Source of the DNA: Longimicrobiales bacterium
GTDB taxonomy: Bacteria; Gemmatimonadota; Gemmatimonadetes; Longimicrobiales; Gaopeijiaceae
Assembly: GCA_965116905.1 (NCBI GenBank)
Contig: OZ220732.1
Location: 96,001 to 160,000 of the forward strand
DNA length: 64,000 nt
Direction: 5' to 3'
A model generated the notes under the pieces. The model ran no database searches. It worked only from the letters and a program-made list of their open reading frames with translations, and was not told the origin of the DNA. The stretch's first letter is position 1; every line of letters starts with the position of its first letter. A program made the translations under genes and the position numbers. Shown here one piece after another: positions 1 to 15,349 of this stretch.

Positions 1-310
1 TGTCGTGCTTCTCGGCCGTGCGGCCGGTCAGCGGCTGGAAGACGTGCGTAAAGTGGGTCGCGCCTCGCGAGAGAGCCCAGTCCTTCATTGCGGCGGCAAC
101 GGCGTCCGCGACATCGGCAGTCGGTTTGTCGCCGTGTTCGATCGTCGCCATGAGCTGCTTGTAGATGCCTTCGGCGAGGCGATCCTGCATCTGAGAGAGC
201 CCGAAAGCGTCTTCGCCGAAAACCTCGGCGAGGTGGTACGGTTCCCTGGACGCGGGGGTCCAGGTGCGGACGGCGTTGACGGAATCAAAGGGCTTCGCGG
301 AGTGGGCCAT
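1..310 (-). CDS. glnA: Glutamine synthetase type III, N-terminal part (runs off the window's left edge)
   Basis: Manual translation from ATG at 310: MAHSAKPFDSV...AMKDWALSRGATHFTHVFQPLTGRTAEKHD, the characteristic GSIII N-terminal motif. Not in the ORF track because it is truncated. Confidence 0.9.
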   Translation of the reverse strand, partial: MAHSAKPFDSVNAVRTWTPASREPYHLAEVFGEDAFGLSQMQDRLAEGIYKQLMATIEHGDKPTADVADAVAAAMKDWALSRGATHFTHVFQPLTGRTAEKHD

Positions 311-473
311 CGGGTGTCGTTCCTCGTCGTCTGAGGGTGCGCTCGGGCGCCGGTTTTGGCAGTTCCGGCGGGCCCGATTGAACTGGGGGACTGCAAAAGT
401 TACCGGGATTACGGGAAAGGTGCAAAACGCCAGCAGGCAAGCCTGTGAGACCAGCGAAACAAGAGCCCCGGAC

Positions 474-514
474 TGTAAAGTAATGTTTACATAATGGAAA
501 TCAGAGTTTCCATT
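474..514. promoter_or_regulatory. Tandem palindromic operator pair TGKAAA-N6-TTTMCA
   Basis: TGTAAA-GTAATG-TTTACA (474-491) and AATGGAAA-TCAGAG-TTTCCATT (493-514), cores 21 bp apart, in the AT-rich divergent intergenic region. Confidence 0.6.
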
Positions 515-737
515 TTGACTTTGCCTGGGACGGCAGTCACGGCAACGCGCAGCTACCCGCGCCGGCCTGCGGCAACTTCCGGCGGTGACTCTCCGTATCT
601 GATGTTATCGCACCGGGTCTTCCGCCCGGAGAAAACGCGGCGAATCCGGCGCGCCGGAATTCGCGCAACAGTCGGACAATGCTACACTAAGATGCTGCCG
701 AGCCCACACTTGGTAATCCTCACACCAGGGGACACCC

Positions 738-2264
738 ATGGCGCCAACGCCGACCGCCTCATCTCTGGTTGAACGATTCAGGCTCAAGGAACGCGGTCGG
801 GAACGCGGTCATGAAGGCCAGCCACACCCCAGCCAGCCGACGCTCGACAACGTGGAGACCGAGGTTGTGGCCTACTGCGACGACCTGTACGCAAACAGGC
901 GCAACGAGTACCACCGCCACCGCTCCGCGCTTGAGGAACGCTTGCGGCCGCCACCTGCCAACCGTGGCGCCGACCCACTTGTCGAAAAAGCTTGCAAGGA
1001 GATGAAGGACGCCGTCGCCGAGGAGCGTCCGGACCTTGCGGGCCTGGCCAGGGAGGCCCAGCACGCGATTGGCGAGGTCAACCGCTTCAGGCGTGACGAA
1101 GCGCGGACGGCAGACGCCGACTTCCCCGAAAGCCGCGGCTGGCACTGGGGACTGCTCGTCGCTCTGATCGTTGTCGAGACTCTCGTAAACGGACTGTTCT
1201 TCGGGGCCAACGTGGAAGGTGGGCTGCTGGCCGGCACCAGTTACGCGGTCCTGATCAGTGTCGTGAACGTGGGTGTGCTCGGCTGGCTGATCGCCGCCCT
1301 GGTGCGCCTGATTCACCACCGTGACCCCCGCCGGAGGGTAGGCGGGTTGGCCGCGCTGACGGTGGTCGCCGCGGTCGCGGTCACCTGGAACCTCTTCGTT
1401 GCCCACTACCGGGAGGCGCTGCCCCCGGACTACCCCGTACCGCCCGATACGACCATGGTCGCGCAGCAGTCTGCGGTCCCTCAGGTCCCGCCTGACGCGT
1501 CTCCGCTCGAGCCGGGTCCGGTCGGAGAACCGCCAGCGGATCAGACCGGCGCTCAGGTGCCCGCCGCCGACTCCGTGCCCGAAACCTGCTGGCGCGGGCC
1601 CGACGAGACCCACGCCGACCAGGAGGCTCTCTGCCTGTTCCGGGCAAGTCCGTTCGGGCTGACCGGGTTCTACTCGTGGATGCTTCTGCTGATCGGGCTC
1701 GCCATGTGCGCGGCGGCCGCGATGGACTGGTTCAAGACGGACGACCCGTACCCGGGCTACGGGAAGCGGGAAAGGCGCCGGCGGAACACCGAGGAGCGGC
1801 TCCTCGACGACCGCCGCGAGCTTCTCGGTGATCTCAACGAGCTCCACGACGGTGCCGCGCGCAAGCTGCGCACCGATTTCCGAGACCCGGTCGAGGCACG
1901 GCAACTCGCCCTGAGTGACTTCAACAAGCTCGATGCCCGGCACACCGATCTGGTCGGCTTTGCGCGCGACCTCGAGAAGAGCTGCCGAGGAGCCCTGGAC
2001 ATGTATCGGACCGCAAACCGGGAAGCGCGGACTACCCCGGAGCCCCAGGTTTGGCAGACCCCGTGGGTGGCCGACTGGGATCTGCCGGAGCCACCGGACG
2101 GCTCCCGGCTGATGAGCGAAGCGGAGGCGGAGGAGCGCAGCCGGCACATGCATGAGGCGCTGGAGCAGCGTGAGAGCAGGCTGAGGGACTGCCACGACGA
2201 GTGCCGCGAGCTTGTGAACGAAATCACAAGACTGGACCCCCACGACAAGGCCGTCCCCACATGA
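738..2264 (+). CDS. Hypothetical 4-TM membrane protein with N- and C-terminal helical/coiled-coil regions
   Basis: 508 aa; hydrophobic segments WGLLVALIVVETLVNGLFFG, YAVLISVVNVGVLGWLIAALV, LAALTVVAAVAVTWNLFV, WMLLLIGLAMCAAAAM; Pro-rich loop with 2 Cys; DDPYPGYG motif; ATGA overlap with next gene. Confidence 0.8.
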   Translation: MAPTPTASSLVERFRLKERGRERGHEGQPHPSQPTLDNVETEVVAYCDDLYANRRNEYHRHRSALEERLRPPPANRGADPLVEKACKEMKDAVAEERPDLAGLAREAQHAIGEVNRFRRDEARTADADFPESRGWHWGLLVALIVVETLVNGLFFGANVEGGLLAGTSYAVLISVVNVGVLGWLIAALVRLIHHRDPRRRVGGLAALTVVAAVAVTWNLFVAHYREALPPDYPVPPDTTMVAQQSAVPQVPPDASPLEPGPVGEPPADQTGAQVPAADSVPETCWRGPDETHADQEALCLFRASPFGLTGFYSWMLLLIGLAMCAAAAMDWFKTDDPYPGYGKRERRRRNTEERLLDDRRELLGDLNELHDGAARKLRTDFRDPVEARQLALSDFNKLDARHTDLVGFARDLEKSCRGALDMYRTANREARTTPEPQVWQTPWVADWDLPEPPDGSRLMSEAEAEERSRHMHEALEQRESRLRDCHDECRELVNEITRLDPHDKAVPT

Positions 2265-3079
2265 GACGGCACCGGCGCAGACGCGCGAACAAGCAAAAAA
2301 ACCTTGCCGGGGCGGTCATCGGCGTAGTCGCCGCGCTCATTCTGATCGCCCTCTTCGTTCGCGGCCAGCGCCCGCGGCGCGCATTCGACGCCGCCAACTG
2401 TCCCGAAGACGGCCGGTACGCCGCGCAGATCGCGGTCCTGGTGGACCCCTCCGACACGCTCACCAACGTGCAGGAGGGCTCGGGTGCACCCCGGGTCCTG
2501 GAGCTCATTCAGAACGGCGCGCCCGAGACGGCCGAAATACGGATCTACACCGTCGGGCAGGCCGGCAGGGGCAACACGGGCGCCGTGCTCAGGGTGTGCA
2601 AGCCGGCTCACCCGGACGATGTCTCTTCGGTGACGGGCAATCCGCAGTTGGCGGAGCGGCGGTACCGCGACGAGTTCCTGGCCCCGCTCGAGCGCACGCT
2701 GGACGCGCTGCTCAACGTCGCGGGCGACTCGATCTCGCCGATCGTGGAGGGAATACAGGTCGCCGCGGTAGGGGCATTCCAGCCCCGCGCAGCCGACATC
2801 CCGCGCCAGCTCTTCGTCGTGTCCGACATGATCCAGAACTCGCGCAACCTCTCGTTCTACAGCGATCCCGTGGATTTCGGCCCGCTCTCGCGCACGCCGG
2901 ACTACGGCACCCTGCGCGTCGACCTCTCCGGCGTCGAGGTTTCGGTGTTCCTGCTCGCGCGCCGGGGTCGGGCCGGGCGAATCCAGGGCGGGACGCTGCG
3001 CGGCTTCTGGGAGGACTATTTCCTGGACCAGGGAGCGTCGCCGCTCGCCCGGCCCAGGTGGATCATGGTCGAAGGATGA
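2261..3079 (+). CDS. Membrane-anchored vWA-like (MIDAS-like) domain protein
   Basis: ATG at 2261 overlaps the upstream stop; basic N-terminus plus one TM; AVLVDPSDT (DxSxT), SPIVEGI and LFVVSDMIQNS resemble vWA-fold motifs. Confidence 0.65.
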   Translation: MRRHRRRRANKQKNLAGAVIGVVAALILIALFVRGQRPRRAFDAANCPEDGRYAAQIAVLVDPSDTLTNVQEGSGAPRVLELIQNGAPETAEIRIYTVGQAGRGNTGAVLRVCKPAHPDDVSSVTGNPQLAERRYRDEFLAPLERTLDALLNVAGDSISPIVEGIQVAAVGAFQPRAADIPRQLFVVSDMIQNSRNLSFYSDPVDFGPLSRTPDYGTLRVDLSGVEVSVFLLARRGRAGRIQGGTLRGFWEDYFLDQGASPLARPRWIMVEG

Positions 3080-4458
3080 CGCCCGCTCCCGCGTACCGGC
3101 TCGCCTCAAACTCCGAAGACGCTCGCAGGCAGCACCGCGACGCCTGGCTGATCGTACTGGCCATCGGCTGCGCGATCATCGTCTTCGGGAATCTCTTCGG
3201 CATCGGGGCCTGGTGGCTCGCATCGGCCGTCGCCGTGTGCATGGTCATCTATGGGTTCGGCATCCAGATCTACGTCGACGACGGCGACGTGCCCGGCGAC
3301 ATCAAGGGCGACTCGATCTACTACCTGGGCCTCCTCTTCACCTTTGCGGCCCTGGTCGCGGCCCTCATCACCTTCGACTGGGGCGCGGCGGGCACGGATG
3401 CAGACGGCACCACCGGATCCATCCGGAACTTCGGCATCGCGCTGCTGACGACGATCGTGGGATTGGCGGGCCGCGTCTGGTTCACGATGTCGCAGGAGTC
3501 GCCCGGAGACATCGCGGACACCGCCAGGTCGGAGCTGGAAGAGACGGTATCCCTGATGAAGGAGAGTCTCGACCGGGCGCGCGACGACCTGGACATCATG
3601 GCGAACAAGTTCCGGGACTCGTCCGCGGGTCTCGCGAAGACGGCCGCAACCATCGTGGAGAGCACAAAGAGAACGGCGGGAACGTACCAAGCGCTGGACG
3701 CGTACACCGGTCAGGTCGCCGGCGCTGCGGAGTCGCTCACCCATCAGATGGACCAGTTGAAGGGCGTGTGCGGCTTGTGCGCCAGCGCTCTCCTCTCGTT
3801 GCAGGAAACCGCAAGGGAGCTGGGGACCCATTTGGACGACGTGCCGGCCCGCCTCGGGAGTCATTTCGACAGGGCCCAGGCCCAACTCAAGAAGGCGGAA
3901 GCCACCTTCGACGGGATCAACAGGGTGGCAGGCCCCGCCGCGGAGCGAGTCGCCGATACGTTGCGGGGGGTGGAGGGCACCGCCGCCGCCGCGTCCGCGC
4001 TCGGCCGGTCCCTTTCGGGCATGCGCGGAAGTGCCGAGCAGGCCGGGAAGGCGCTCGCGGGCATCGCCGATGCGGTGGACAGTCACGAGGCTCTTCCCCT
4101 CTGGCAGGAGTCCGTGGACCAACTGCACGAAGGGACCCGGGGCATCCGTGGCATTGCCAGGCGCGCGGCCGAAATGAACGCCGAGTTCGAGGAGCTCAAG
4201 GCATCCCTGCGGGCCGCCCGCGAGGGGCTCGCGTCCGTCCCCGGCTCAGCCCGCTCGATCACCGAGCAGCTCGACCGAACGAGGCCGGATCTGACCACGA
4301 GCCTGGCGCCGCTTCACGCGGTGGCGCAGGACCTGCACGCCGAGCCGTCGGCCGAGCCGGCCAGCCGGATCCGGCGGGCGATGGCAGCGCCTCGGCGGGC
4401 GGTGGCGGGTACCTGGCGGGCGTGGAAGCGGGTGACCGCATTCCGGCGGCAGCACTGA
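3076..4458 (+). CDS. MotA/TolQ/ExbB/ZorA-like proton-channel subunit with long C-terminal helical tail
   Basis: ATG at 3076 (ATGA overlap); four hydrophobic segments including YYLGLLFTFAALV and FGIALLTTIVGL, which match the last two TMs of the MotA/ExbB family; followed by about 300 aa of Ala-rich heptad helix. Confidence 0.7.
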   Translation: MTPAPAYRLASNSEDARRQHRDAWLIVLAIGCAIIVFGNLFGIGAWWLASAVAVCMVIYGFGIQIYVDDGDVPGDIKGDSIYYLGLLFTFAALVAALITFDWGAAGTDADGTTGSIRNFGIALLTTIVGLAGRVWFTMSQESPGDIADTARSELEETVSLMKESLDRARDDLDIMANKFRDSSAGLAKTAATIVESTKRTAGTYQALDAYTGQVAGAAESLTHQMDQLKGVCGLCASALLSLQETARELGTHLDDVPARLGSHFDRAQAQLKKAEATFDGINRVAGPAAERVADTLRGVEGTAAAASALGRSLSGMRGSAEQAGKALAGIADAVDSHEALPLWQESVDQLHEGTRGIRGIARRAAEMNAEFEELKASLRAAREGLASVPGSARSITEQLDRTRPDLTTSLAPLHAVAQDLHAEPSAEPASRIRRAMAAPRRAVAGTWRAWKRVTAFRRQH

Positions 4459-4474
4459 CCTCGGGCCCCGACGA

Positions 4475-5689
4475 ATGCTGCCCGCCGAGAAGAAGCACTA
4501 TCGCAAGGGGTTGGCGCTGGGGCTGACCCTGGCCGAGACGTTCAGCATCGTCGTCTTCATCCTGTTGCTCGCGTGCGCCGTCCTGCTCCGCTTCGAGCAA
4601 TTCCAGCGGGACACGGCCGAAGCGCAGCTCGACACCGCCAGAGTCGATCTCCACCTCACCCAGGAACTGCTGAACACGGAGACCGTTTCCTGGGGCAACG
4701 CGCACGCCTGGTACGAATACGCGCGGCAGCTTCGCGACACCGTGGAAGCGCTGCAGGCCCGGGTGCTTGACGCCGAGCGCGCGCGAGACCAGGCCAGCAT
4801 ACGCGTAGCGCAGGCAGACTCACTGCTGGCCGAAAACGGCATATCGGAAGAGGTCGCGGACCGGGCCGCGCGCCTTGCAGGCGAACGCGATTCACTGAGG
4901 GCCGCCGCGGCAGAGAGCGACCGGCGTCTGCGGGAGGCGACCGCCCTGCGAGACTCGCTCGCTCAGCGCCTGGCCGATACGGAAAGGGTCGCCGACGAGC
5001 TTCGCGACGGTCTCGCCGGGGCCAACGGCCTGACTCCAGAGGAAGCCGAAGGCATCATCGGACAGGCGGCACGGTCCGCCGACCTGCGCGACTCGCTGGA
5101 CGCAGCCAAAAGGACGATCGGAGCCCTCGATCAGCAACTCAGGGCCGCCAGGGCAGAGATGCTCGCAGACCCCGATTCGCTTGTCGACTCACTCCGTGCC
5201 GGCCTCAGCGAGAGCCGCTTCCGCGAGGACACGTTGCGCAGCCGGGTCTGGGACGCCGAACGCGAGCGGAACGACGCCGTCGGGAGGGCCGAATACAGGG
5301 AGGCCCAGCTCGAGCAGCTTCGCCAGGGCAGCGGAATCGATCCCCCGCCCTGCTGGCTCGACCCCGAGGGCAATCCCGAGTACATCTTCCGGATCGAGCT
5401 GACCGACGGCGGCATGCGCCTGTTCGGAATCGCCCCCGGACACAGGATCACCGGCGACCCCGAGGCCGCGGGGTACGCTGCCGCGATCGAGGACGGCCGG
5501 GAGTACGCGTCGGCGGAGTTCCTGCGCCTCACCCAGCCCTTCTACACCCTGGGTGTGTCCCGAACCCAGGCCTTTGGCCCGATGGGGTGCCGCTTCTGGA
5601 TCCGGCCCGTCGACCGGACCGGCGACCGCAAGGATGTCTTCCAGGAGCGGCAGGATCAACTGTGGCGGCGGTTCTGGTTTCGGTGGTAG
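4475..5689 (+). CDS. MotB/ZorB-like single-TM protein with long coiled-coil stalk and unrecognised Cys-containing C-terminal domain
   Basis: N-terminal GLTLAETFSIVVFILLLAC resembles the MotB TM (acidic residue at the start of the helix); long coiled coil; C-terminal PPPCWLD...GCRFWIR with no OmpA motif visible. Confidence 0.6.
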   Translation: MLPAEKKHYRKGLALGLTLAETFSIVVFILLLACAVLLRFEQFQRDTAEAQLDTARVDLHLTQELLNTETVSWGNAHAWYEYARQLRDTVEALQARVLDAERARDQASIRVAQADSLLAENGISEEVADRAARLAGERDSLRAAAAESDRRLREATALRDSLAQRLADTERVADELRDGLAGANGLTPEEAEGIIGQAARSADLRDSLDAAKRTIGALDQQLRAARAEMLADPDSLVDSLRAGLSESRFREDTLRSRVWDAERERNDAVGRAEYREAQLEQLRQGSGIDPPPCWLDPEGNPEYIFRIELTDGGMRLFGIAPGHRITGDPEAAGYAAAIEDGREYASAEFLRLTQPFYTLGVSRTQAFGPMGCRFWIRPVDRTGDRKDVFQERQDQLWRRFWFRW

Positions 5690-5897
5690 GGGGGCTTGTC
5701 ATCATTGAGATCTGAGCGCTGATCGTTCGTTTTTCAATGATGAACCCCCGCGAGCGCATCTTCTGGCCCCCGTTGACCGCTGGCCGCAAAAAAAAAGGTG
5801 AATACCCTCCAGCCCGCGTGCGTATTTCGTAGACAGACCTGACGCGAAACGGGCTCGCCCGACTTCCGCGCCCGAACGCGCAACCCGGAGGACCCGC

Positions 5898-6170
5898 ATG
5901 GCCGACTCCAGCAAGTGCCAGGAGAGCGGGAACATCGCGCGTGACACCGTCCGCCGGCACCTCAAGTCCAAGCGGGGGCGCGGTGGTCCGGGCTTCCTCT
6001 CGCTCCTCGCCCTGCTCTTCATCGGGCTGAAGCTGACGGGTCACATCGAATGGTCGTGGGTCTGGGTGCTCTCGCCCCTCTGGTTCAAGATCCTGTTCGC
6101 GCTGCTGATGGTCGTGGCGGCAGTAGGCATTCACAAGAAGACGGGATGGAAGCCCTCCGGGAAGACCTGA
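5898..6170 (+). CDS. Small membrane protein of a type common in phages (Tmemb_185A / Fragile-X-F-like motif)
   Basis: GGAGG RBS; GFLSLLALLFIGLKLTGHIEWSWVWVLSPLW motif. Confidence 0.7.
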   Translation: MADSSKCQESGNIARDTVRRHLKSKRGRGGPGFLSLLALLFIGLKLTGHIEWSWVWVLSPLWFKILFALLMVVAAVGIHKKTGWKPSGKT

Positions 6171-6257: not shown

Positions 6258-6626
6258 TTAGTCTCGCAAACTCGCGATTTGTCCACTCAGGTCGCTTCGC
6301 AACGTCCCCATTTGGCCAGTCAGTTCCGAACGGACCTGCCCGATTTCCAGGCGCAGTTCCTTTCTCAGGTCCGCAATCAGATCGCGCGTTTCGATCCGGG
6401 CATCCTGGATCTCGAGCCGGACATCCTGGATCTCGAGCCGGGTCTTCTGGATCTCGAGCCGGGTTTCAATCCGGAATTCCTGCAGCTCCCCTCGCAGATC
6501 CGCGAGCGCCTGGGACAGCGTCCAGACGCCGCCCCCTACCGTGACCGCCACGACCAGGACGAAGTGCCCCAGTTGAACGGGTTGGCTGAGTCTCGGCACG
6601 ATCGCCGCCCTCACCCCCTCCTCCAT
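6258..6626 (-). CDS. Small TM plus coiled-coil protein (CCDC90/DUF1640-like)
   Basis: Hydrophobic segment then heptads RLEIQKT/RLEIQDV/RLEIQDA. Confidence 0.6.
   Translation of the reverse strand: MEEGVRAAIVPRLSQPVQLGHFVLVVAVTVGGGVWTLSQALADLRGELQEFRIETRLEIQKTRLEIQDVRLEIQDARIETRDLIADLRKELRLEIGQVRSELTGQMGTLRSDLSGQIASLRD
6395..6470. repeat. 21-bp tandem repeat, about 3.5 copies, encoding coiled-coil heptads
   Basis: CTGGATCTCGAGCCGG core recurs with period 21. Confidence 0.85.
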
Positions 6627-10525: not shown

Positions 10526-11698
10526 CTAGCTCCCTACGATCTCCACCAGTTCCCGCAACCCGATCACTTCGATGCCGTCGCTGACAGGATATCGGTCATT
10601 CCCGGACCCGACCAGGTAGGTGCGGCTGGCCATGAGGTCCTTACGCGCGTGGTGGAGCCCCCGGCTGGGCGTGGGGGCCAGCCCGAGCTTGATCTCGATC
10701 GCCCATGGAGCTTCCTCACCGGGCAGACGGAGGACCAGATCCACTTCGGCGCCCGCCCGAGTCCGGTAGAACCCGGCGTGCGTTCCCGGAGGCGCGACCC
10801 CCAGCAGGTTCTCGATCACGAAGCCCTCCCAGCTGGAACCCGCGACGGGATGACCGGCCAGGGCATTGTAGTCGCGGATCTCGAGGAGAGCGTGCACCAG
10901 TCCGCTGTCTCGCACGTACACCTTCGGGGTCTTGATCAGGCGCTTCCGGACGTTTGTGCGGAATGGTTGCAGGCGACGGACCAGAAGGAGATCGACAAGC
11001 AGATCCACGTACCGTGAAATCGTGGAAGAACTGACCCCCAGGCTCCCTGCCAGCTTCGATGAGTTGAGCAGGCTGCCCTGGCTGTGGGCCAGCATCCGCC
11101 AGAGCCGTTCGATGGTTTCGGCGGGGAGCCGGACGCCAGCGAGGTCGGCGATGTCCCGGTGCAGGTACGTCTGGATGAAGTTTCGGCGAAACGCGGTGCT
11201 GTCCGCATCCGTCGCCGCCAGCAGGCTGTCGGGGAATCCCCCGCGGACCCAAAGGGAAAGGAGCGGCGGCGGTTCGTGCTCGATCTCCACAAGGTTGACG
11301 GGATTGAGACGGACGAACTCGATTCTCCCGGCCAGGGATTCCGACGACTGCCTGAGAAGGTCGATCGAGGCGGAACCCAGGATCAGGAATCGCCCGGTTC
11401 GCCGACCCCTCCGGCGCCCACGGTCGATCAGCCCACGCAAATCGCCAAACAGCTCCGGCGCCCGGTGGATCTCGTCGAGCACGACGAGGCGGTCCTCGAA
11501 CTGGCCAAGAAACAGATTCGGATCGGAAAGCTTGGCGCGATCGGTGCTGGACTCGAGGTCCAGATACAGGGCCTCTCGGGTTGCCGCGATTTCCAGGGCC
11601 AGTGTGGTCTTGCCGACCTGCCTGGGGCCGATCAGACCGACCGCAGCCTGGCGATCCAGTGCCGTCGTAACCGCCGAGAACGCAATTCTTGGTATCAT
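10526..11698 (-). CDS. AAA_14 ATPase with DUF4143 C-terminal domain
   Basis: GPRQVGKTT Walker A, LDEIH Walker B, LGSAS, GGFP, KxPKVYVRDSGL, EVDLV...IEIK. Confidence 0.92.
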   Translation of the reverse strand: MIPRIAFSAVTTALDRQAAVGLIGPRQVGKTTLALEIAATREALYLDLESSTDRAKLSDPNLFLGQFEDRLVVLDEIHRAPELFGDLRGLIDRGRRRGRRTGRFLILGSASIDLLRQSSESLAGRIEFVRLNPVNLVEIEHEPPPLLSLWVRGGFPDSLLAATDADSTAFRRNFIQTYLHRDIADLAGVRLPAETIERLWRMLAHSQGSLLNSSKLAGSLGVSSSTISRYVDLLVDLLLVRRLQPFRTNVRKRLIKTPKVYVRDSGLVHALLEIRDYNALAGHPVAGSSWEGFVIENLLGVAPPGTHAGFYRTRAGAEVDLVLRLPGEEAPWAIEIKLGLAPTPSRGLHHARKDLMASRTYLVGSGNDRYPVSDGIEVIGLRELVEIVGS

Positions 11699-12337: not shown

Positions 12338-13758
12338 GGGTCAGCGGTGGCAGGTGCGGTGCGGGTGCTGCGGCGGGAGGCGGCCCGGCGCCCGCGCGCG
12401 GCCCTTGCGGCGGCCCAGATCGCGCACCAGGCCAGCCATGACACGCGTTCGCGGAGTGTGAGGGTGCAGAAGTGCGACCACAACAGCAACGGGACGGTGG
12501 CCGCCAGCTTGACCGCCGACCCCTCGTGGTACGGCATCGTGCGTTCCACGACCGTCACCGCGCGGCGGCGCTCCCCGTGCAGCACCTCCTCGATCGCGCT
12601 GCCGAGTTCGTCCGGCGACATGTGGGGCCAGCCCGGGAGCCGCATCACGCTCCAGGCCGCGACGGCACGCCCCCATCCGTGGTTGTTCGAGCCGGCCACC
12701 ACGGCCAGATCCATGCTGTCGGCCAGAGCGAGGATCTCTTCCCGCTCGGCACGGCCCTGCTCGAGGCCGCGCGGCGCCCCGTCGCCGAGCTCCACGCCGA
12801 TCACGCCGGCCGGCGAGCCGGGCCCAAACGGCACGATCCGGTCGAGCGGGCCGGGGATCGTGTATAGCATGGTGGCGGGCCGGGCGCCGCGGTCGTGCGC
12901 GGCCGCGATCGAGTCCGGGTCGAGGTGGTGCCAGGTGCCGTCCAGCGCGAAGGCGTAGCGCGCGCGGTCCCCCAGGATGTTCGTGTGGCCGTCGCGCAGC
13001 CGCACCTCCATGCCGCTCAGCAGGACGGTGCGTCCGCCAGCGCGCCCGCCGGTACGCCCGCCCGCGAGCTCTGGGTTGGCGGGCAGGGCCTCGGCCACGC
13101 CCGCCCAGGTGTAGTGATCGGTGACGTAGGCCGCGTGGAAGCCGCCGGCCTCGTGCCACGCGCGGTTCCGGGCCGCCGTGAAGCGCGACCACCCGTCGTG
13201 GGAATGGTTGGTGTGCGAATGGAAGTCCACCGCGACGAGGTCGGGCGATGCCAGCCGGATCGCGGCCATGGGGCGCGGGACGAGAGCGGCCGCCGCGTAA
13301 AAGGCGAGCAGGGCGGCAAGGGCGGCTGCGGCGAGGAGGGCTTCCCGGATGAGGCGGCGGGGGAGCGGGGTGCGGGGGGCGGGGGTGCGGGGGGCGGGTG
13401 TGGGGGGGGCGGGGGTGCGCCGGGGCTGGGCCGCGCCGGGTTGGCGGGCCAGACCTGGTGGCCGGCGGCCAGGGGCACCCGCCGCGACGAGGCGGCCGGC
13501 CGCGTACAGCGCGATCAGGGTCGTCAGAACAGCGTAGTGCTGGCTGACCGTGAGCAGGGTCAGCGTGTCCCAGAGGCCGAAGAGGGGTGCGCCGAGGAGG
13601 TAGCCGGGCGGGTGGTGGAGGGTGGCGGGGGGGAAGGGTTGGAGGGTGGCGGCGTCGCGCAGCGCGGGAACCGCGAAGAGCGTGGAGAACACAACGAGGG
13701 CCGCGACCAGGAAGGGGCCGCGGAAACGTCGCACAGGCTTGCCGACCACGCGCTTCAT
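12334..13758 (-). CDS. Membrane-anchored PHP-domain metallo-hydrolase
   Basis: DFHSHTNHSHDG, VTDH, GMEV, GSNNHG; N- and C-terminal TMs; ATGA overlaps with both neighbours. Confidence 0.8.
   Translation of the reverse strand: MKRVVGKPVRRFRGPFLVAALVVFSTLFAVPALRDAATLQPFPPATLHHPPGYLLGAPLFGLWDTLTLLTVSQHYAVLTTLIALYAAGRLVAAGAPGRRPPGLARQPGAAQPRRTPAPPTPAPRTPAPRTPLPRRLIREALLAAAALAALLAFYAAAALVPRPMAAIRLASPDLVAVDFHSHTNHSHDGWSRFTAARNRAWHEAGGFHAAYVTDHYTWAGVAEALPANPELAGGRTGGRAGGRTVLLSGMEVRLRDGHTNILGDRARYAFALDGTWHHLDPDSIAAAHDRGARPATMLYTIPGPLDRIVPFGPGSPAGVIGVELGDGAPRGLEQGRAEREEILALADSMDLAVVAGSNNHGWGRAVAAWSVMRLPGWPHMSPDELGSAIEEVLHGERRRAVTVVERTMPYHEGSAVKLAATVPLLLWSHFCTLTLRERVSWLAWCAIWAAARAARGRRAASRRSTRTAPATADP
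13359..13420. repeat. G-rich 15-bp tandem repeat encoding a TPAPR/TPAPP linker
   Basis: GGGGTGCGGGGGGCG-like units on the + strand. Confidence 0.75.
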
Positions 13759-15050
13759 CGCACCGTGGTCGCCAGTCGCGACGCGCGTTCGCCGACGAGT
13801 TCGGCCTGGCTCACAAGAGCCTCTTCGCCGATTCCCGGGAGCGCGAGTTCCTCCGCCACTGCCCTGGCTCGCCGGCTCGCCAGATCACACAACTCCCGCA
13901 CTCGTCGCCGGACAAAGGGCGGTGCCATGCCGCACCGTCTGGCGAACCGGTCCCAATCGATTCGGCGCAACTCTGCCAGCGTACGGCGACCCGCGATGTT
14001 CATCGCGAACCTTGGCGTATAACGTGGATAGGCAACGGTCGACAGCAGGTCGTAGAGCGGTGCCAGTCCTACCTCGCCCTCCGGTCCTCTGAGGAGACTG
14101 TAGTTCTTGCCGTGGGCATCCGCGTTGCCCAGCAACACGTGAACGATCGCTGCATCGAGCAACCCGAGCACAGCAACCGCGGGACGGGTACACACCCTTC
14201 GCACCAGATCGAAGCACTCCGGGAATCCGGGCCCGCCGTCCGAGGCATACTTCCTCTGGGGTACAAACCCGAGAGCCTGGCAGAAGTCCTCCTGGTGGAG
14301 CCGTTCCACCGTGCCATCCGGAGCGGTTCGCCGGTCGTAGCGTTCCACCAGCAGGTAGGTGCTGTCCGCCACAACCGCGGGTCGCACCGGTGCGACCTTC
14401 AATCCCATCCGTGACGCAAGGCGCATCGCGAACGCCTCGTTTTCGGTGGGATGGTCGAGGCCGGGGATTGGCGGCTTCAGGATGTGCGTGGTGGGCTGGC
14501 CAGGGACGGGAAGGGCGACACGCTCATCGGCCAGCACGACCGGAAGTTTGGATTGGGCTCCGGCCAGTGACATCCGCAAGCCTTCCCCCGGGGCGTCTGC
14601 CAGCCCCTCGTATTCCTGTCCGAGGCCGGCGAGAAACGGCCGCGTGCGGATCGTCTCCAGGAGAAGCAGCAGCTCGTCGTCCAGGAGTGGCACGGGCTCG
14701 GATTCCGCCGGAGCCTCGGGCGGTTCCTCGTTGTCAGACAGCAGGGTGAGTGCACCCGCCAACTCTGCACCCAATCCGGCCAGAATGCGGAAGGTGTTGG
14801 TAGGCGAAACCCCGAGTGCGACGGCAACGGCATCGCGTTGCGCGCCTTCAGGCAAGAGCCCCTCGAAAAACGGCAGGCAAAGCCGCGTACTGAAGCTCTC
14901 CGGTCGCTTGGGCAAGGAGAACGAAATGGGCGGCGCCGACCCGTCTTCGATCCACCCGCTGTCGTAGGTGAAACGCATCGCGCCATGTCGATCCAAAGCG
15001 AGTCGGCCGACTGTCGTCCCGGCCCACCAGACGGTCAGCGATCGACTCAC
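13755..15050 (-). CDS. hipA: HipA-family Ser/Thr kinase toxin
   Basis: GTG at 15050 overlaps the hipB stop; FFEGLLPEG, SLAGAQSKL, HILKP, HQEDFCQALG, GNADAHGKNYS, LAPLYDL. Confidence 0.95.
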   Translation of the reverse strand: MSRSLTVWWAGTTVGRLALDRHGAMRFTYDSGWIEDGSAPPISFSLPKRPESFSTRLCLPFFEGLLPEGAQRDAVAVALGVSPTNTFRILAGLGAELAGALTLLSDNEEPPEAPAESEPVPLLDDELLLLLETIRTRPFLAGLGQEYEGLADAPGEGLRMSLAGAQSKLPVVLADERVALPVPGQPTTHILKPPIPGLDHPTENEAFAMRLASRMGLKVAPVRPAVVADSTYLLVERYDRRTAPDGTVERLHQEDFCQALGFVPQRKYASDGGPGFPECFDLVRRVCTRPAVAVLGLLDAAIVHVLLGNADAHGKNYSLLRGPEGEVGLAPLYDLLSTVAYPRYTPRFAMNIAGRRTLAELRRIDWDRFARRCGMAPPFVRRRVRELCDLASRRARAVAEELALPGIGEEALVSQAELVGERASRLATTVR

Positions 15051-15349
15051 TCGGACGACCACGCCGGTCGCCGGCCGGCACCGGTCGGGGCCACCGATCG
15101 ATGCCCGGCCTCCTCACTTGACGCTGCCGCGGCCGATTCCGCCTCGACCCGGGGCATCTCAACGCGCAAAGTGCAACCGAGCGCATCGAGCACGGTGATG
15201 ACTTTCTCAAGCCGAACCGTCGTCTTGCCCCGCTCCAGCTCGGACAGGAATCGGACCCCCACCCCTGCGGCGCCGGCCAACTGATCCTGACGGAGGCCCT
15301 GTGCCCGTCTGGCAGCCCGTACGATGCGTCCGATTTCCGCAGGCGTCAT
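15047..15349 (-). CDS. hipB: HipB-like HTH antitoxin (y4mF family)
   Basis: MTPAEIGRIVRAARRAQGLRQDQLAGAAGVGVRFLSELERGK Xre/Cro HTH directly upstream of hipA. Confidence 0.9.
   Translation of the reverse strand: MTPAEIGRIVRAARRAQGLRQDQLAGAAGVGVRFLSELERGKTTVRLEKVITVLDALGCTLRVEMPRVEAESAAAASSEEAGHRSVAPTGAGRRPAWSSE

Follow-up and report, generated by a model that had tools for sequence, protein, structure and literature searches.

Here we describe a four-gene membrane cassette at positions 738 to 5689 of a 64,000-nucleotide window, the whole stretch of DNA that was analysed, from a Longimicrobiales bacterium (GenBank assembly GCA_965116905.1, contig OZ220732.1, positions 96,001 to 160,000). Its genes, G1 to G4, form a conserved operon that is found in many bacterial phyla and has no name in Pfam, NCBIfam or PADLOC, and the products of two of them, G3 and G4, are very probably a pair from the family of 5:2 ion motors. 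An earlier note on this DNA had read here four co-oriented membrane genes joined by two ATGA overlaps and a 16-bp gap, and open reading frame (ORF) coordinates and hydropathy agree: the overlaps lie at 2261-2264 (G1/G2) and 3076-3079 (G2/G3), the gap separates G3 from G4, and hydropathy gives four, one, four and one transmembrane (TM) segments for G1 to G4 respectively. The genes, and the positions within them to which we return below, are as follows.

738..2264, + strand: G1, 508 aa, no known family; helical cytoplasmic N- and C-termini, 4 TM (predicted)
2261..3079, + strand: G2, 272 aa, single TM, likely periplasmic vWA-like domain
3076..4458, + strand: G3, 460 aa, MotA/ExbB/ZorA-like candidate A subunit, 4 TM helices, helical cytoplasmic tail
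3340-3342, + strand: codon of G3 T89, invariant in 132 sequences
3451-3453, + strand: codon of G3 T126, invariant in 132 sequences
4475..5689, + strand: G4, 404 aa, MotB/ZorB/TolR-like candidate B subunit with TM, predicted coiled-coil stalk and C-terminal head
4535-4537, + strand: codon of G4 Glu21, the TM acid
5315..5689, + strand: predicted periplasmic head of G4, about residues 281-404, confidently modelled, TolR-like, with an invariant Cys pair

Conservation and distribution of the four-gene block

All four ORFs are intact and co-oriented, and the host assembly, a single contig with 97% completeness, has one copy of each. The block is also covered by independent contigs from three public runs, for which no frameshift is listed inside it, and dN/dS values against one same-genus orthologue set (0.065 for G1, 0.053 for G2, 0.244 for G3 and 0.119 for G4) indicate that purifying selection acts on all four genes. 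Scans of the four proteins with Pfam and NCBIfam gave nothing above cut-off and PADLOC gave weak coiled-coil matches only, which bears out the earlier suggestion that the block is unnamed; matches to SMC, JetC, LmuB and apolipoprotein were set aside as coiled-coil noise. Sequence searches of the PDB with profiles of G1, G2 and the G3 TM region produced no meaningful match.

G2 was detected in 20 of 36 same-genus genomes and in none of 24 genomes from elsewhere in the order. Among the 20 same-genus loci that were fetched (of 21 non-self places of G2), the order G1-G2-G3-G4 is kept in 19, and the flanks vary except in the five closest genomes. For GTDB species genomes, one pattern matched 450 stretches, of which 394 were confirmed, and the best 80 of these 394 were analysed as loci; they cover 14 phyla, with 60 in Pseudomonadota. 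All four genes stand in order on one strand in 71 of the 80, and the co-occurrence that had been predicted is thus seen in both sets. Seven of the nine incomplete loci sit at contig ends, and L068 and L113 apparently lack G1-G2. A search with G2 also returned 24 plasmid or chromid records, and the block was present in all five that were opened, where its genes are mostly labelled as hypothetical proteins or OmpA family members. Experimentally tractable carriers of the cassette include Rhizobium johnstonii 3841 (RL_RS31080-31100), Sinorhizobium fredii and Sphingomonas, and in Rhizobium leguminosarum TA1 the locus comprises six genes, thermonuclease-G1-G2-G3-G4-SH3. The cassette is widespread, with 394 GTDB genome matches and 1,911 protein clusters matched by the G3 membrane-domain profile at E≤0.001, yet annotated as hypothetical.

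A candidate ion-motor pair

The MotA/TolQ/ExbB signature that the earlier note had picked out in G3 (LGLLFT...ALLTTIVGL) is present, as is its long helical tail, which extends for about 320 aa after TM4. Eight residues (Y82, Y83, G85, T89, A122, T126, G129 and R133) are invariant among 132 sequences, and G3 has the TM pair with a conserved Ser/Thr ring by which A subunits of the 5:2 motor superfamily are recognised. When the host genome was searched with the G3 profile, the best three matches after G3 itself were three Pfam-confirmed MotA_ExbB proteins (E 2.7e-4, 0.14 and 1), aligned exactly on the two Thr-bearing helices (LGFLGT/ALTTTAAGL); MotA_ExbB itself is matched weakly by 10 of 105 G3 members (best E 6.2e-5). 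Residues 1-200 were modelled with a predicted local distance difference test (pLDDT) score of 85.7 and a continuous helix at 143-199, and a wide fold search placed ZorA II at Z 9.0 (98 residues aligned, root-mean-square deviation, rmsd, 2.4), level with unrelated bundles. A search with the full-length G3 profile matched generic coiled coils and was discarded. Motif, profile and partner together make a convincing case for G3 as a putative A subunit.

That partner, G4, carries the marks of a B subunit, namely an adjacent single TM, an intramembrane carboxylate and a head of OmpA or TolR/ExbD type, the window head being a predicted one. The MotB-like TM and long stalk (about 240 aa, predicted coiled coil) claimed for it are both there, but the TM acid is Glu21 and not Asp. 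The TM motif reads GLTLAE in the window and G-L/F-T-x-x-E across the family; the intramembrane Glu is found in 94 of 95 sequences, never as Asp in those 94, and the remaining one lies outside the pattern. ZorB has a critical Asp (PMC11890865), and the MotB D33E variant keeps about half of its proton conductance (PMC4030992), so a Glu in G4 is compatible with a working channel.

The model of the window head is confident (pLDDT 93), and a fold search of 48,161 chains returned only two with a Z of at least 5, both TolR periplasmic domains (Z 5.4, rmsd 3.7, 80 residues aligned; Z 5.3, rmsd 2.8, 72 aligned), with ExbD at 3.2. Foldseek gave no significant match for the head and placed ExbD at ranks 44-49; a bleomycin-hydrolase match (E 1e-4) was dropped, as the fold search gives it no support. 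Among 76 G4 C-termini, 50 have the domain with the invariant Cys pair, 22 an OmpA-like domain and four are unclassified, the head from Inquilinus matching ZorB type II at E 4.9e-61. On a locus tree built from G1, G2 and G3 (72 rows after removal of 18 near-duplicates) head type needs four changes, and a single origin of the OmpA-type loci is rejected (approximately unbiased test, p 0.014, 34 chosen rows). The tree indicates that the G4 head has been replaced repeatedly, TolR-like against OmpA-like. In known motors, head types mark separate groups (PMC12505986). Glu throughout and repeated head exchange bear on the evolution of stators and offer natural tests of ion coupling. To our knowledge, the 5:2 ion motors make up a short list in which each family is marked by an Asp in the pore and by a single kind of periplasmic head.

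G1 and G2 also occur without the motor

G1 has TM segments at 135-159, 162-193, 201-224 and 306-333, conserved polar residues in or at the membrane (E147, N151, N177, N218, H223 and R225) and a D336-PYPGY motif; it has no match in Pfam, NCBIfam, PADLOC or the PDB, and its ESM Atlas neighbours are unnamed. G2 keeps residues resembling a metal-ion-dependent adhesion site (MIDAS), D62-x-S/T64-D65, S159-P160 and D189, and an invariant Cys pair, C47/C113; neither His nor Asp is conserved in its TM helix. Its domain is likely a vWA domain, and we grade it no higher because the profile evidence consists of a VWA_3 match in one of 92 G2 members (E 2.8e-4, under cut-off) and an ESM Atlas lead to VWA_2 (score 0.87). 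One solo G2 has a lipobox-like start, judged by eye, as would suit a protein of the periplasm.

G1-G2 is a detachable module. A phylum-wide search gave G2 matches in 30 of 301 genomes, and 11 fetched loci (L040, L174-L182 and L184) have G1-G2 without a G3-family or G4 gene. Nine genomes with solo pairs, 95-100% complete and, in all but G222, inspected at the locus, gave no G3 match, and genome G150, which has a full locus, did match. Solo G1 proteins mostly match just the membrane part of the G1 profile. In one case (L176:4343-10165, G169:C1) the solo pair faces, in convergent orientation, a ZorA of type II (E 6e-41 to 8vvi) together with a ZorB-like gene and one further gene, and other solo pairs adjoin a DNA methylase, BrxL and HipA. 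Some adjoin genes that we take to be VirB2/B3-like. At L178:4940-8294 the order is G1-G2-G1, two G1 paralogues flanking one G2.

Exported-type nucleases, a small fifth gene and defence neighbours

Unsupervised clustering of the genes around the 80 GTDB loci yielded one dominant family, a thermonuclease, in 29 of them; a thermonuclease profile finds it in 31, of which 15 are confirmed by Pfam at strict thresholds. Other loci have Endonuclease I (2), a non-specific endonuclease (2), an S1/P1 nuclease (1), a PLD-type nuclease (1) or a GmrSD_C-type HNH nuclease (1), so that a likely exported nuclease from one of six families, with signal peptides judged by eye, lies near 38 of the 80. These genes are close, within 621 bp in 31 of the 37 cases measured, and none was found in 17 hand-placed 12-kb control stretches of the same genomes. 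From the genome-wide density of SNase genes (PF00565, 59 matches in the 162 Mb of 33 genomes), the flanks, 0.78 Mb in all, would be expected to contain about 0.3. A thermonuclease also lies within about 0.5 kb in four of the five opened plasmid records. The nuclease label changes 17 times among the 72 rows of the locus tree, which argues that the linkage is not one inherited cluster, though related loci are not independent. We regard the nucleases beside the cassette in other lineages as a stronger effector lead than G1.

An iterated profile finds a small gene that overlaps or abuts the G4 stop in 27 of 74 loci, and inspection by eye adds about 11; the encoded protein begins with a helix and ends in an amphipathic tip. 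Examples at L041:7369-7587, L048:10209-10439 and L059:5846-6079 are unannotated, encode 50-150 aa and have an end helix of W/F-x-x-R-L-F-G type. In the window, no + strand ORF of at least 60 aa starts between 5689 and 5898.

Defence-type genes are suggestively enriched around the cassette. At E≤1e-15, PADLOC matches 14 of 139 neighbour genes (20 loci) against 3 of 135 control genes (17 loci), p 0.01 with generic hits included, and the neighbour matches include Shango, Iet, OLD nuclease and PDC systems. Of the 324 nearest neighbours, 300 were scanned with Pfam, and recombinases, transposases and restriction domains are numerous in this set. Radical-SAM genes, which we take to be the HXS system, flank L044, L088 and L093, and a DUF4041 gene flanks the S. 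fredii locus; DUF4041 is the domain of SNIPE (PMC13190303). A fusion of a caspase domain with a DEAD helicase, HamB-like, lies downstream of the cassette at two distant loci (L054:12399-15413 and L089:12806-15337).

Comparison with described systems

Among the nearest described systems is the ZorA-ZorB core of Zorya (types I and II; PDB 8qyd, 8vvn and 8vvi; PMC11890865), with which the cassette shares a MotA-like subunit with a Ser/Thr ring and a long helical cytoplasmic tail, a single-TM B subunit whose head is OmpA-like in 22 of 76 G4 relatives and ZorB II-like in Inquilinus, and a patchy distribution on islands. It differs in that Glu replaces the critical Asp, one more TM helix is present at the N-terminus, the window G4 has its TolR-like head at the end of a stalk of about 240 aa, two additional membrane genes lie upstream and ZorC, ZorD and ZorE are missing, and the nucleases linked to it are of exported type rather than cytoplasmic. 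Against Zorya profiles, window G3 reaches at best E 4.8e-4 with PADLOC ZorA, through its coiled tail, and 12.8 bits with NCBIfam, where the cut-off is 190; window G4 has no match. Genes for zorC/D/E/F/G were found neither in the window nor recurring among neighbours of the cassette, and the earlier observation that flagellar, tonB/tolA and zorC/D/E genes are missing next to the block was upheld once the neighbours had been typed. As judged from sequence, then, the cassette resembles the Zorya core yet falls outside Zorya, having no profile match, Glu in place of Asp and no ZorC-G.

With TolQR and ExbBD the cassette shares the TM3-TM4 motif of G3, which aligns with the MotA_ExbB proteins of the host, and a G4 head whose closest match is the TolR periplasmic domain. 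It differs from them in its extended A-subunit tail and B-subunit stalk, in having Glu where they have Asp, in a head that can be exchanged for an OmpA-like domain, and in having no TolA, TonB, TolB or Pal; in the window there is no TolA/TonB transducer, TolB-Pal or TonB-dependent receptor, and a single TonB_C protein was seen among 300 neighbours scanned. Two predicted families of vWA-coupled 5:2 motors have been described (PMC12204202), one consisting of TPR, TolQ and two TolR genes with an SHLS-type helix, the other of a vWA domain fused to an Asp-bearing pore helix with no TolR or MotB. Like them, the cassette encodes a TM-anchored, likely vWA protein beside a MotA/TolQ-like gene; it differs from what is described there in that its putative vWA gene stands apart from that of the B subunit with its Glu, is paired with G1 and also occurs without a motor. 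SNIPE (PMC13190303) and HXS (bioRxiv 10.64898/2026.01.06.697848) act on phage DNA as it crosses the envelope, as is proposed below for the cassette, and some cassette loci have a DUF4041 gene or paired radical-SAM genes beside them. Unlike the cassette, these two systems have no reported motor, and no homology of theirs to G1-G4 was detected, and the SNIPE nuclease faces the cytoplasm. We found no description of the cassette in the literature, in which subscription papers were thinly covered and supplementary defence-system tables could list it.

Proposed mechanism and alternative explanations

The reading that we put forward is that the cassette may be a Zorya-like inner-membrane checkpoint against incoming foreign DNA, and we give it an even chance of being right. 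Five G3 subunits would surround two G4 helices, with the T89/T126 ring facing Glu21 and protons driving rotation, as the motor family suggests. Once the envelope is deformed by a phage tail or a conjugation channel, the G4 head on its long stalk would engage the wall or the outer membrane, and this engagement would open the motor channel, as proposed for ZorB. G2 might grip the intruding conduit through its likely metal-binding vWA domain in the periplasm, G1 and the G3 tail might relay signal or force, and a neighbouring nuclease might cut DNA as it crosses the periplasm. For the lineage of the window, which mostly has neither nuclease nor fifth gene, the output could instead be stalling of entry or local depolarisation. 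A more elaborate version would make the cassette a new class of 5:2 motor with an extracytoplasmic effector: a Glu motor with an interchangeable TolR or OmpA head senses the envelope breach, the detachable G1-G2 adaptor, which can also accompany a Zorya II motor, takes hold of the conduit that delivers the DNA, and an exported nuclease of any one of six unrelated kinds destroys that DNA in the periplasm. As a whole this version is tentative and rather unlikely. Were defence at the DNA-entry step confirmed, it would add a periplasmic arm to bacterial immunity.

A number of observations weigh against the checkpoint. In the phylum of the window a nuclease neighbour occurs in just one of 27 full loci (L034); the window locus itself has none, and PF00565 has no match in the host genome. 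Elsewhere the orientation and side of the nucleases vary, so they may have hitch-hiked on islands. The enrichment near defence islands that had been anticipated is modest, seen by gene and not significant by locus (6 of 20 against 1 of 17, p about 0.10), and the gene counts of both sets include generic hits. The cassette is rare in viral collections, with two IMG/VR contigs and no INPHARED record, and there is no cytoplasmic effector like ZorC, ZorD or ZorE for the G3 tail. As to the parts, the kinship of G3 with MotA, ExbB and ZorA that had been claimed is upheld by the motif and by the profile matches to host MotA_ExbB proteins; in structure searches, ExbB, PomA, TolQ and ZorA dominate the Foldseek list, none at E≤0.001, and the G3 fold scores fall within the range usual for helical bundles. 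The TolR match of the G4 head is modest (Z 5.4). The proposed vWA partner keeps its MIDAS-like residues and the sub-threshold VWA_3 match, but it stays under every curated cut-off and, compared with the canonical MIDAS DxSxS...T...D, the fifth Ser is not kept, with D65 conserved in its place.

Of the other explanations, an accessory Ton/Tol-like energiser of envelope upkeep or import, whose motor pulls a wall or outer-membrane target via G2 and which has no role in defence, seems to us unlikely. It would suit the TolR-like head of 50 of 76 G4 proteins, the SH3, peptidoglycan-binding and PBP1A genes among the neighbours, the stable position in the five closest genomes and the description of vWA force transducers beside TolQR-like motors in PMC12204202. 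It would leave the six nuclease families unexplained, together with a G1-G2 pair kept without the motor, a ZorA-type tail foreign to ExbB and TolQ and a patchy, island-borne distribution, and no TonB-dependent receptor, TolB or Pal recurs among the neighbours. Somewhat less probable is abortive defence by depolarisation, in which G2 and the G4 head sense damage, G1 (the possible effector of the earlier note) or the motor itself leaks ions and the nucleases are island passengers. Against it, the nucleases come from six families and are immediate neighbours in most cases (31 of 37 within 621 bp), and G1 resembles no PADLOC model; the conserved E, N, H and R residues in or at the G1 TM helices, the standalone G1-G2 pairs, often beside defence-type genes, and the scarcity of nucleases in the window lineage are all in its favour.

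The adjacency of exported-type nucleases in 38 of 80 loci could also be read as scavenging of extracellular DNA or nucleotides as nutrient, with the nucleases cutting DNA and the motor energising capture or import, and single phosphatase neighbours, PhoX (L068) and a metallophosphoesterase (L041), would fit. We rank this marginally lower: the cassette is intact in a lineage mostly lacking the nuclease, mobile-element and restriction genes are commoner as neighbours, and no nucleoside transporter or receptor recurs among them. Least credible, and very improbable, is a surface-adhesion or gliding-type motor (AglRQS/GldLM-like) that moves a vWA adhesin. A motor with a vWA protein does recall myxobacterial gliding, discussed in PMC12204202, and G3 has a GldL-like long helical tail, with TIGR03513 at only E 0.17; the patchy distribution on plasmids and islands counts against such a motor, and no outer-membrane track or secretion genes lie nearby.

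The window locus and minor observations

One further feature lies directly 3' of G4.

5713..5739, + strand: terminator-like hairpin with T-run

Its position suits the end of an operon, and the number of terminator-like elements found (2, against 3.7 expected in shuffles) is within chance. A search for a sigma-70 promoter was negative. A contig from a sponge RNA library spans 1-6080 and was not counted as transcription; its depth is flat, intergenic DNA included, so it may be DNA. A metagenome scan with one cassette protein returned its own locus and two 20-residue matches, nothing else.

The block is surrounded by a divergent glutamine synthetase III, two small membrane genes, a multicopper oxidase, an AAA_14/DUF4143 ATPase (10526-11698, - strand) and a HipA kinase (13755-15062, - strand); the ATPase family is seen again near the block in 5 of the 20 genus loci. 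A small gene next to the block (5898-6170, + strand) encodes a 90-aa, two-TM protein with a weak Tmemb_185A match (E 8e-4). The earlier note had taken a small neighbouring gene as support for an accessory role, a point that we do not retain: this gene follows the block in only 5 of the 20 loci, those of the closest genomes, which share this genomic site, and it was dropped as a component of the cassette. Another (6258-6626, - strand) encodes a 122-aa protein with a TM, a coiled coil and short internal tandem repeats (LEIQ-like), and a small gene with a similar product precedes G1 at L115.

Three cassettes elsewhere have conspicuous insertions or neighbours. An IS3-like element interrupts G3 in a metagenome-assembled genome of Acidobacteriaceae (L089:8921-10275), an orphan VgrG gene closely precedes the cassette of a plasmid from Paracoccus aminovorans (L125:4516-6603), and four tandem paralogues of a 386-aa AAA ATPase stand immediately 3' of G4 at L110:10705-15836.

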